This document shows positions 58,388 to 58,737 of a stretch of 64,000 bases of DNA, piece by piece. The position numbers and the translations under genes are program-made. Source of the DNA: Escherichia coli (GTDB taxonomy: Bacteria; Pseudomonadota; Gammaproteobacteria; Enterobacterales; Enterobacteriaceae); the NCBI RefSeq assembly GCF_003334335.1, contig NZ_QOWQ01000011.1; one strand, written 5' to 3'. A model generated the notes under the pieces. The model did no database searches. It was not told the DNA's origin and was given only the letters and a program-made list of their open reading frames with translations. Numbering within the stretch: position 1 is the stretch's first letter; every line of letters starts with the position of its first letter.

Positions 58388-58737
58388 TAACTCCTTTCGA
58401 GCACGCAGTCGCTGGTGCAGTGGCTGCGCGCTGCAAAATTATCTGCTGTTTTTAACCTTTTCTTAAAGATTATTTCACTTCTCTTGTGTCGATTTGGCTT
58501 TATCACATAGAGCAAATATGCATAAAAATTTGTTAAATACCGTTTTTTAATCCGAGCTATAGTCTCAAACCCTGGCTAAAGTTATTCTTGCGATGCTTTT
58601 ATATAGCGAGCAGTGCTGGCCGGGAGAAAGTTCTCTTTTCTTACACCGCGCCGATAAAAAATATGCACGTTTATTGCATATCTTTCAGTGTGACAACTTT
58701 TGTTCGTTTGTTAACGAACTTTCAGAAGGAAAGAGAT

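Follow-up and report, generated by a model that had tools for sequence, protein, structure and literature searches.

A probable lineage-conserved hairpin in the predicted potF leader of enteric bacteria, a modest candidate regulatory element

The inverted repeat and the potF leader

Is the short inverted repeat lying just ahead of the potF start codon of Escherichia coli a mere accident of sequence, a regulator site on the DNA or a structure in the mRNA? The window, by which we mean the whole stretch of 64,000 nucleotides that was analysed, is E. coli chromosome with the gene order nfsA-rimK-ybjN-potFGHI, and the 373 nt that precede and enter potF found a match in 5,420 of 5,426 complete E. 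coli genomes (95-100%). An earlier note on this DNA had given the sequence of the repeat exactly but had placed it at 58704-58721, 2 nt too far to the right. It actually occupies 58702-58719 and, since it ends 18 nt before the ATG at 58738, it does lie about 20 nt upstream of the potF start, as had been proposed. The features needed here are the following, in window positions.

58662-58678, + strand: sigma54 promoter with -24/-12 elements, TATGCACGTTTATTGCA (ChIP-seq site OS08 of Bonocora 2015, RpoN gSELEX, motif conservation).
58689, + strand: sigma54 transcription start as predicted, 19 bp beyond the centre of the motif; potF begins 49 nt further on.
58702-58708, + strand: 5' arm of the repeat, GTTCGTT (RNA GUUCGUU), with its outer 4-5 nt, GUUC(G), as conserved core (sequence, fold, conservation, covariation).
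58709-58712, + strand: loop TGTT (RNA UGUU) (conservation in the alignment).
58713-58719, + strand: 3' arm, AACGAAC (sequence, fold, alignment).
58725-58733, + strand: Shine-Dalgarno (SD) region GAAGGAAAG, 4-7 nt before the AUG and 5-6 nt after the hairpin (7-8 nt over the 42 species compared below); AAGG is conserved in all leaders.
58738-59850, + strand: potF coding sequence, for the periplasmic putrescine-binding protein, with its ATG at 58738-58740 (open reading frame, RefSeq annotation of matches).

Taken on its own, the repeat is unremarkable. The window contained 68 inverted repeats with perfect 7-bp arms and a loop of 3-8 nt, versus 26 expected. Because at least one of them is expected with P about 0.18 in a 350-nt spacer of the same composition (0.02 in the last 60 nt), the repeat alone is statistically ordinary, and its significance can come from conservation only. 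The 18-mer RNA folded with -6.3 kcal/mol (z = -3.5 against 18-mer shuffles) and the centroid structure predicted for the sigma54 transcript contained nothing but this hairpin, while the stability of the whole leader equalled that of shuffles (z = -0.12). A repeated element was discarded: the pattern GTTCG-N8-CGAAC was found once in perfect form in the window, and its one-mismatch copies were at chance level. A direct repeat of 71% identity links CGTTTATTGCATATCTTTCAG (58668-58688, in the -12 region of the promoter) and CGTTTGTTAACGAACTTTCAG (58705-58725, in the 3' half of the hairpin); less evident in other species, it could be due to chance or to an old local duplication.

The leader had been put at about 350 nt. 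This figure is the distance from the ybjN stop to the potF ATG (58388-58737), whereas the sigma54 site predicts a leader of 49 nt. The hairpin stands at +14 to +31 of that predicted transcript, and it is contained in any longer transcript too. The objection anticipated in the earlier note, namely that the repeat might lie upstream of the transcription start, does not hold for the sigma54 start predicted at 58689 from ChIP-seq and motif data. Bonocora et al. (2015) reported the sigma54 ChIP-seq site OS08 with the motif TATGCACGTTTATTGCA and a PSSM score of 6.8, in their lowest range; yet the strongest RpoN-holoenzyme gSELEX peak of Shimada et al. lies in the ybjN-potF spacer. The same authors found potG/potI induction to be NtrC-dependent and treated potGHI as a separate NtrC/sigma54 unit. 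In the potF-potG spacer, at window position about 59861, their gSELEX data also gave a strong peak for NtrC (95%) and one for RpoN+NtrC. A sigma54-type motif was conserved in every locus that we examined of the two potF lineages described below. The promoter carries TG, not the near-universal GG, at -25/-24, and the non-consensus form TATGCAY-N4/5-YTGCA is conserved in both lineages. It is itself palindromic over 58657-58685, as AAAAATATGCA-N7-TGCATATCTTT, with 7 bp perfect and 11 bp at 91%.

The regulators of potF named in the literature are ArcA, Lrp and NtrC. The ArcA study gives its site as -139 to -108, which corresponds to window positions of about 58449-58480 and comprises three direct-repeat elements on the - strand. 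These offsets imply a further potF start near 58588, coinciding with the TTG that opens a 50-codon in-frame stretch. As had been remarked before, the open potF frame extends upstream of the start by 50 codons, to the TTG at 58588; an in-frame extension of PotF as coding sequence was nevertheless rejected, given a 1-nt deletion in E. coli strain KE51 and 1-nt indels between species. Term-seq places a 3' end of the ybjN transcript at 58446. Within E. coli, the spacer varies most in the segment 58388-58450, running from just after ybjN to this end, and a simple terminator scan flagged no terminator in it. The 240 nt that adjoin potF hardly vary in this species.

Conservation and covariation of the stem

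We compared at least 80 potF loci, with one genome per species. Among the loci listed, 42 species made up the E. coli-type lineage (e.g. Escherichia, Citrobacter, Salmonella, Klebsiella/Raoultella, Enterobacter, Kosakonia, Kluyvera and Pluralibacter), and in these species the layout was near-invariant: all had a sigma54-type motif, the leader measured 48-50 nt and the first nucleotide of the hairpin fell at +12 to +14. In the alignment of these 42 species, 89.8% of the stem cells were able to pair, versus 21-48% when the partner column was slid by 1-3 positions. Both sides were altered in 16 cells, and double changes were found in three pairs. The covariation score was reached by none of 500 shuffles; two stricter covariation measures were non-significant (43/500 and 52/500). 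RNAalifold, applied to the alignment, independently recovered the outer four pairs. The states of the five outer pairs were distributed as follows (numbers are alignment columns).

Pair 47-64: G-C 35, A-U 2, G-U 1.
Pair 48-63: U-A 22, U-G 13, C-G 2.
Pair 49-62: U-A 20, C-G 12, U-G 6.
Pair 50-61: C-G in 37 of 38.
Pair 51-60: G-C 33, broken 5.

The two loop-proximal pairs were broken in 8 and 12 of the 38 distinct sequences, and the fifth pair was broken by G-to-A changes at least five times. Judged from this alignment, the conserved core is a stem of 4-5 bp, GYYC(G)/(C)GRRC.

The changes were then placed on a tree built by neighbour joining from potF coding sequences. At least 14 state changes were counted in the two variable pairs, and only one of these changes gave a non-pair. 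Stem columns changed almost only by pair-preserving transitions, and the flanking spacer columns varied freely, transversions and indels included. In a phylogeny-aware simulation, where the two columns of each pair evolved independently on the tree with matched tip frequencies and change number, the lack of any C.A combination had a P of about 0.05 at pair 49-62 and was uninformative at pair 48-63, the product being about 0.03. All wobbles were U.G on the + strand, so that an antisense RNA would be mismatched.

A second lineage, represented by ten loci among those listed (Buttiauxella, Cedecea, Siccibacter, Mangrovibacter and others), also has this sigma54-type motif, which lies 80-118 nt ahead of the ATG. 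The hairpin in its leader is GC-rich, has the core CYCG/CGRG and shows the same series of U-A, U.G and C-G pairs. The loop of this hairpin is unrelated, and the stem has extra G-C pairs and is followed by a run of 4-5 U. Over both lineages, all nine RNA-compatible combinations of the two variable pairs were observed (9/9), and none of the seven combinations with C opposite A (0/7). Because the variable pairs thus run through U-A, U.G and C-G and never show C opposite A, an RNA stem fits the data better than a palindrome bound by a protein on DNA.

Variation at finer and wider scales was also surveyed. The most divergent complete E. coli genome shows a single change in the hairpin, turning the closing G-C into G.U. 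A metagenome scan, anchored on the promoter motif and the SD only, added the stem GCUCG/CGAGC, a further GCCCG/CGGGC stem with a new loop and two E. coli variants, one with G.U and one that disrupts the stem. In two species of Salmonella and in Trabulsiella the 18-mer has no predicted stable fold, yet it retains TTTGTTAACGG. The block UGUUAACG (58709-58716), which covers the loop and the inner part of the 3' arm, shows a conservation of 90% or more among the E. coli-type species. Since this block is conserved while its 5' partners vary, something besides pairing constrains it in that lineage. In Yokenella regensburgei the promoter motif ATATGCATTTATTGCAT is 2 nt shorter and close to the SD and there is no hairpin; the genus appears to have lost the element by deletion.

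The earlier note had left the choice between a regulator site and an RNA structure. The comparative data lean towards the second term of this alternative, with 90% pairing, compensatory changes whose wobbles are U.G only and a stem kept in the second lineage. Pairs maintained by compensatory substitutions across species, the generic criterion for a structured RNA, are present here with a phylogeny-aware P of about 0.03-0.05. A stem in the sense-strand RNA that is under selection is thus the best-supported reading; its support is good but not decisive, and it is not proven. We take the repeat to be, with a likelihood somewhat short of even, a cis-acting stem-loop located beside the ribosome-binding site in the short 5' leader of an NtrC/sigma54-dependent potF mRNA. 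In more general terms, the comparison suggests that the element is most likely an unannotated, lineage-conserved leader hairpin and a modest candidate regulatory element.

The palindrome may, on the other hand, have no function of its own: it would have arisen by chance in a slowly evolving region next to the promoter, and transition bias and shared ancestry would account for the covariation. We consider this fairly unlikely. The figure of about 0.18 for a 7-bp repeat in the spacer, the two non-significant strict measures and the phylogeny-aware P of about 0.03-0.05 are all compatible with it, as are the high conservation of the entire 240 nt upstream of potF within E. coli, the degraded stem of Salmonella and Trabulsiella, and a predicted SD accessibility that does not depend on the hairpin (see below). 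It does not readily explain why, next to flanks that vary freely, the stem columns accept almost only pair-preserving transitions, why the diverged second lineage has, in the same position, a hairpin that shares the core but not the loop, or why nine of nine compatible states and none of the seven incompatible ones were seen. Should the repeat be non-functional, it would exemplify how a perfect palindrome beside a start codon can be statistically ordinary, and how covariation among close enterics can shrink markedly under a phylogeny-aware null.

A DNA operator was also considered: the sigma54-RNA polymerase would be blocked by a transcription factor bound as a dimer to the palindrome (core TGTTAACG / GTTAAC) at +14 to +31. 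The palindrome is perfect, its central GTTAAC / TGTTAACG is conserved and its spacing to the promoter is fixed; Salmonella keeps the core sequence despite weakened RNA pairing, and potF, which is under several regulators (ArcA, Lrp, NtrC), is repressed by putrescine. Against this, the half-sites are asymmetric in one direction: 23 cells have T opposite G and none has C opposite A, which G.U in RNA would produce and a symmetric dimer would not; the arms change and yet stay complementary, and the second lineage keeps the stem and loses the core sequence. An ArcA site, suggested by the TGTTAA of the repeat, was discarded, the mapped ArcA site lying elsewhere, about 220 bp upstream at 58449-58480. 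We know of no E. coli factor whose motif matches the palindrome. An operator is in our opinion unlikely.

Possible modes of action of the hairpin

If the RNA stem-loop is functional, it would act post-transcriptionally. Neither the SD nor the start codon lies inside the stem (stem 58702-58719, SD 58725-58733), which does not correspond to an SD-sequestering hairpin or an RNA thermometer. Conversely, a hairpin that would keep the SD open was rejected, because the predicted SD accessibility, calculated from the partition function and averaged over 42 species, is unchanged by arm mutation or deletion (0.51 for the wild type, 0.52 for the arm mutant and 0.51 for the hairpin deletion). A search of 58300-58900 with Rfam cmscan (E<=10) returned only weak chance hits to eukaryotic snoRNAs and lncRNAs, far below the gathering scores. 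A possible resemblance of the leader to the T7 gene 10 leader or epsilon enhancer was considered, and BLAST of the leader against phages gave no T7-like match. The record OR851255.1, named 'Salmonella phage S.Kent 1-2-1' (UNVERIFIED_ORG, 2.3 kb), carries the Salmonella chromosomal potF leader and gene start and is probably host DNA, not phage.

The thrS operator, to which ThrRS binds, exemplifies translational operator hairpins located shortly before an accessible SD. Like such operators, potF has a short stem-loop a few nt ahead of an unpaired SD; its position relative to the ribosome-binding site is fixed and its loop is conserved within the lineage. Unlike them, the potF candidate is a hairpin without a known partner, protein or sRNA, and its loop is not conserved in the second lineage. 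By analogy, we infer that this layout is that of a hairpin on which a trans-acting factor docks. In the most likely mechanism the hairpin, beside the ribosome-binding site, would serve as docking element for a protein or a small RNA that, once bound, would tune either 30S access or mRNA decay. This mechanism is preferred because the stem excludes the SD and the AUG, the predicted SD accessibility is independent of the stem and UGUUAACG is conserved. Alternatively, the hairpin may be a passive folding module of the leader. Our literature search found no report of sRNA, Hfq, CsrA, ProQ, GlnZ or leader-based post-transcriptional control of potF, and it returned no reporter or probing data for the element.

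In E. coli, a speB mutant poor in putrescine has more potFGHI mRNA, and in Dickeya potF is repressed by putrescine. The hairpin would be a candidate element behind the rise of potFGHI mRNA at low putrescine. A more specific proposal is that it is a cis element feeding polyamine status back onto the putrescine importer of enteric bacteria. A polyamine-sensitive RNA structure, or the docking of an RNA-binding protein or sRNA, would set the translation or the decay of potF mRNA. This proposal is quite unlikely; if true, it would explain the potFGHI mRNA rise in putrescine-poor cells. A functional hairpin would in any case add a post-transcriptional layer to a transporter that is now described only via transcription factors (NtrC/sigma54, ArcA, Lrp), and would offer a mutable 18-nt target for studying the repression of the putrescine uptake system by its own substrate, a response seen with E. 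coli and with Dickeya.

The potF hairpin may also be compared with stabilisers of the ompA type (PMC9943677). Like these, it is part of a 5' UTR, placed after the 5' end and ahead of the ribosome-binding site, and the mRNA encodes an envelope or periplasmic protein. Unlike them, it stands 12-13 nt from the predicted 5' end and is not terminal. A 5'-terminal stabiliser was rejected on this ground, the hairpin starting at +12 to +14 in all 42 species. A bare hairpin acting as an obstacle to RNase E scanning was likewise set aside. Because RNase E, according to Richards and Belasco (PMC9943677), readily bypasses simple stem-loops, the bare 7-bp potF hairpin should protect little, and only a bound hairpin would protect the mRNA from RNase E.

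The potF leader shares with intrinsic terminators and attenuators a stem-loop followed by U residues, and its homologues in the second lineage are GC-rich and continue into a U4-5 run. The E. coli element could accordingly be the remnant, or a weak form, of a leader attenuator whose ancestral GC-rich hairpin and U-run caused premature termination. The homologous stem of the second lineage (e.g. GCUCGCGACCGCGAG), followed by UUUU(U) in a leader downstream of a sigma54-type motif, and the UUUC tail of the E. coli stem are in keeping with this idea. The E. coli stem, unlike that of an intrinsic terminator, is AU-rich (3 of 7 pairs are G-C, -6.3 kcal/mol) and followed only by UUU before the final C. 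A + strand terminator scan of 58300-58800, with a G+C-rich stem and at least 5 U within 8 nt as criterion, found none, and neither was any flagged on the + strand of two loci of the second lineage. Klebsiella, Kluyvera and Pluralibacter lack the U-run, and Term-seq tables contain no 3' end in the potF leader, the cultures concerned being not nitrogen-limited. Finally, the stem of the E. coli-type lineage is still kept by compensatory change and is thus not decaying freely. A weakened attenuator is very unlikely in our view.

Extremely improbable, lastly, is a role as the apex of an insulator, where the CU-rich 58677-58693 of longer transcripts would pair with the SD and AUG (58722-58740) and silence translation, the hairpin bringing these two segments close: the complementarity in E. 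coli (75% over 16 nt, 100% over 7 nt), the helix formed around the hairpin in the minimum free energy fold of a longer RNA (-16.7 kcal/mol; z = -2.76 for a 141-nt RNA) and the second start near 58588 implied by the offsets of the ArcA paper would all fit, but 61% of the cells pair, which is the shuffle mean, covariation is below that of shuffles, the only invariant pairs join the CAU of the -12 element to the AUG and ybjN transcripts end at 58446. A conserved anti-SD helix of this kind was therefore rejected, since it is predicted in E. coli but its conservation equals that of shuffles. CT-rich anti-SD motifs have been described in sigma54 promoters by Levy et al. (bioRxiv 10.1101/086108), whose work holds no potF data. 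The potF sigma54 promoter is like these insulators in that the CU-rich runs 58680-58686 and 58719-58723 are able to pair with the SD, and unlike them in that the anti-SD pairing is not conserved and the conserved hairpin does not touch the SD.

Predicted hairpins in related leaders

In the longer leader of the second lineage, a second predicted hairpin, CCUUU/GAAGG, sequesters the SD and is located 3' of the GC-rich hairpin and its U4-5 run. From these predicted folds, the two-hairpin leader could be an attenuator or a translational switch.

The window contains another gene for a binding protein under NtrC/sigma54, glnH, whose motif lies at 13014-13029 on the - strand. Its leader (12957-13008, - strand) shows a small predicted hairpin, GGGA...UCCC, between the predicted start and an exposed SD, AAGGAAA. 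This layout resembles that of potF; its fold does not surpass that of shuffles (z = -0.84).

The E. coli-type hairpin is absent from Yersinia, Rahnella, Pectobacterium, Brenneria and their relatives; some 35-60 nt ahead of potF they carry another conserved one, UGUAUC-loop-GAUACA, with a loop of 3-9 nt. Some paired changes were observed in this stem as well, namely GCAUCC/GGAUGC and GUACC/GGUAC.
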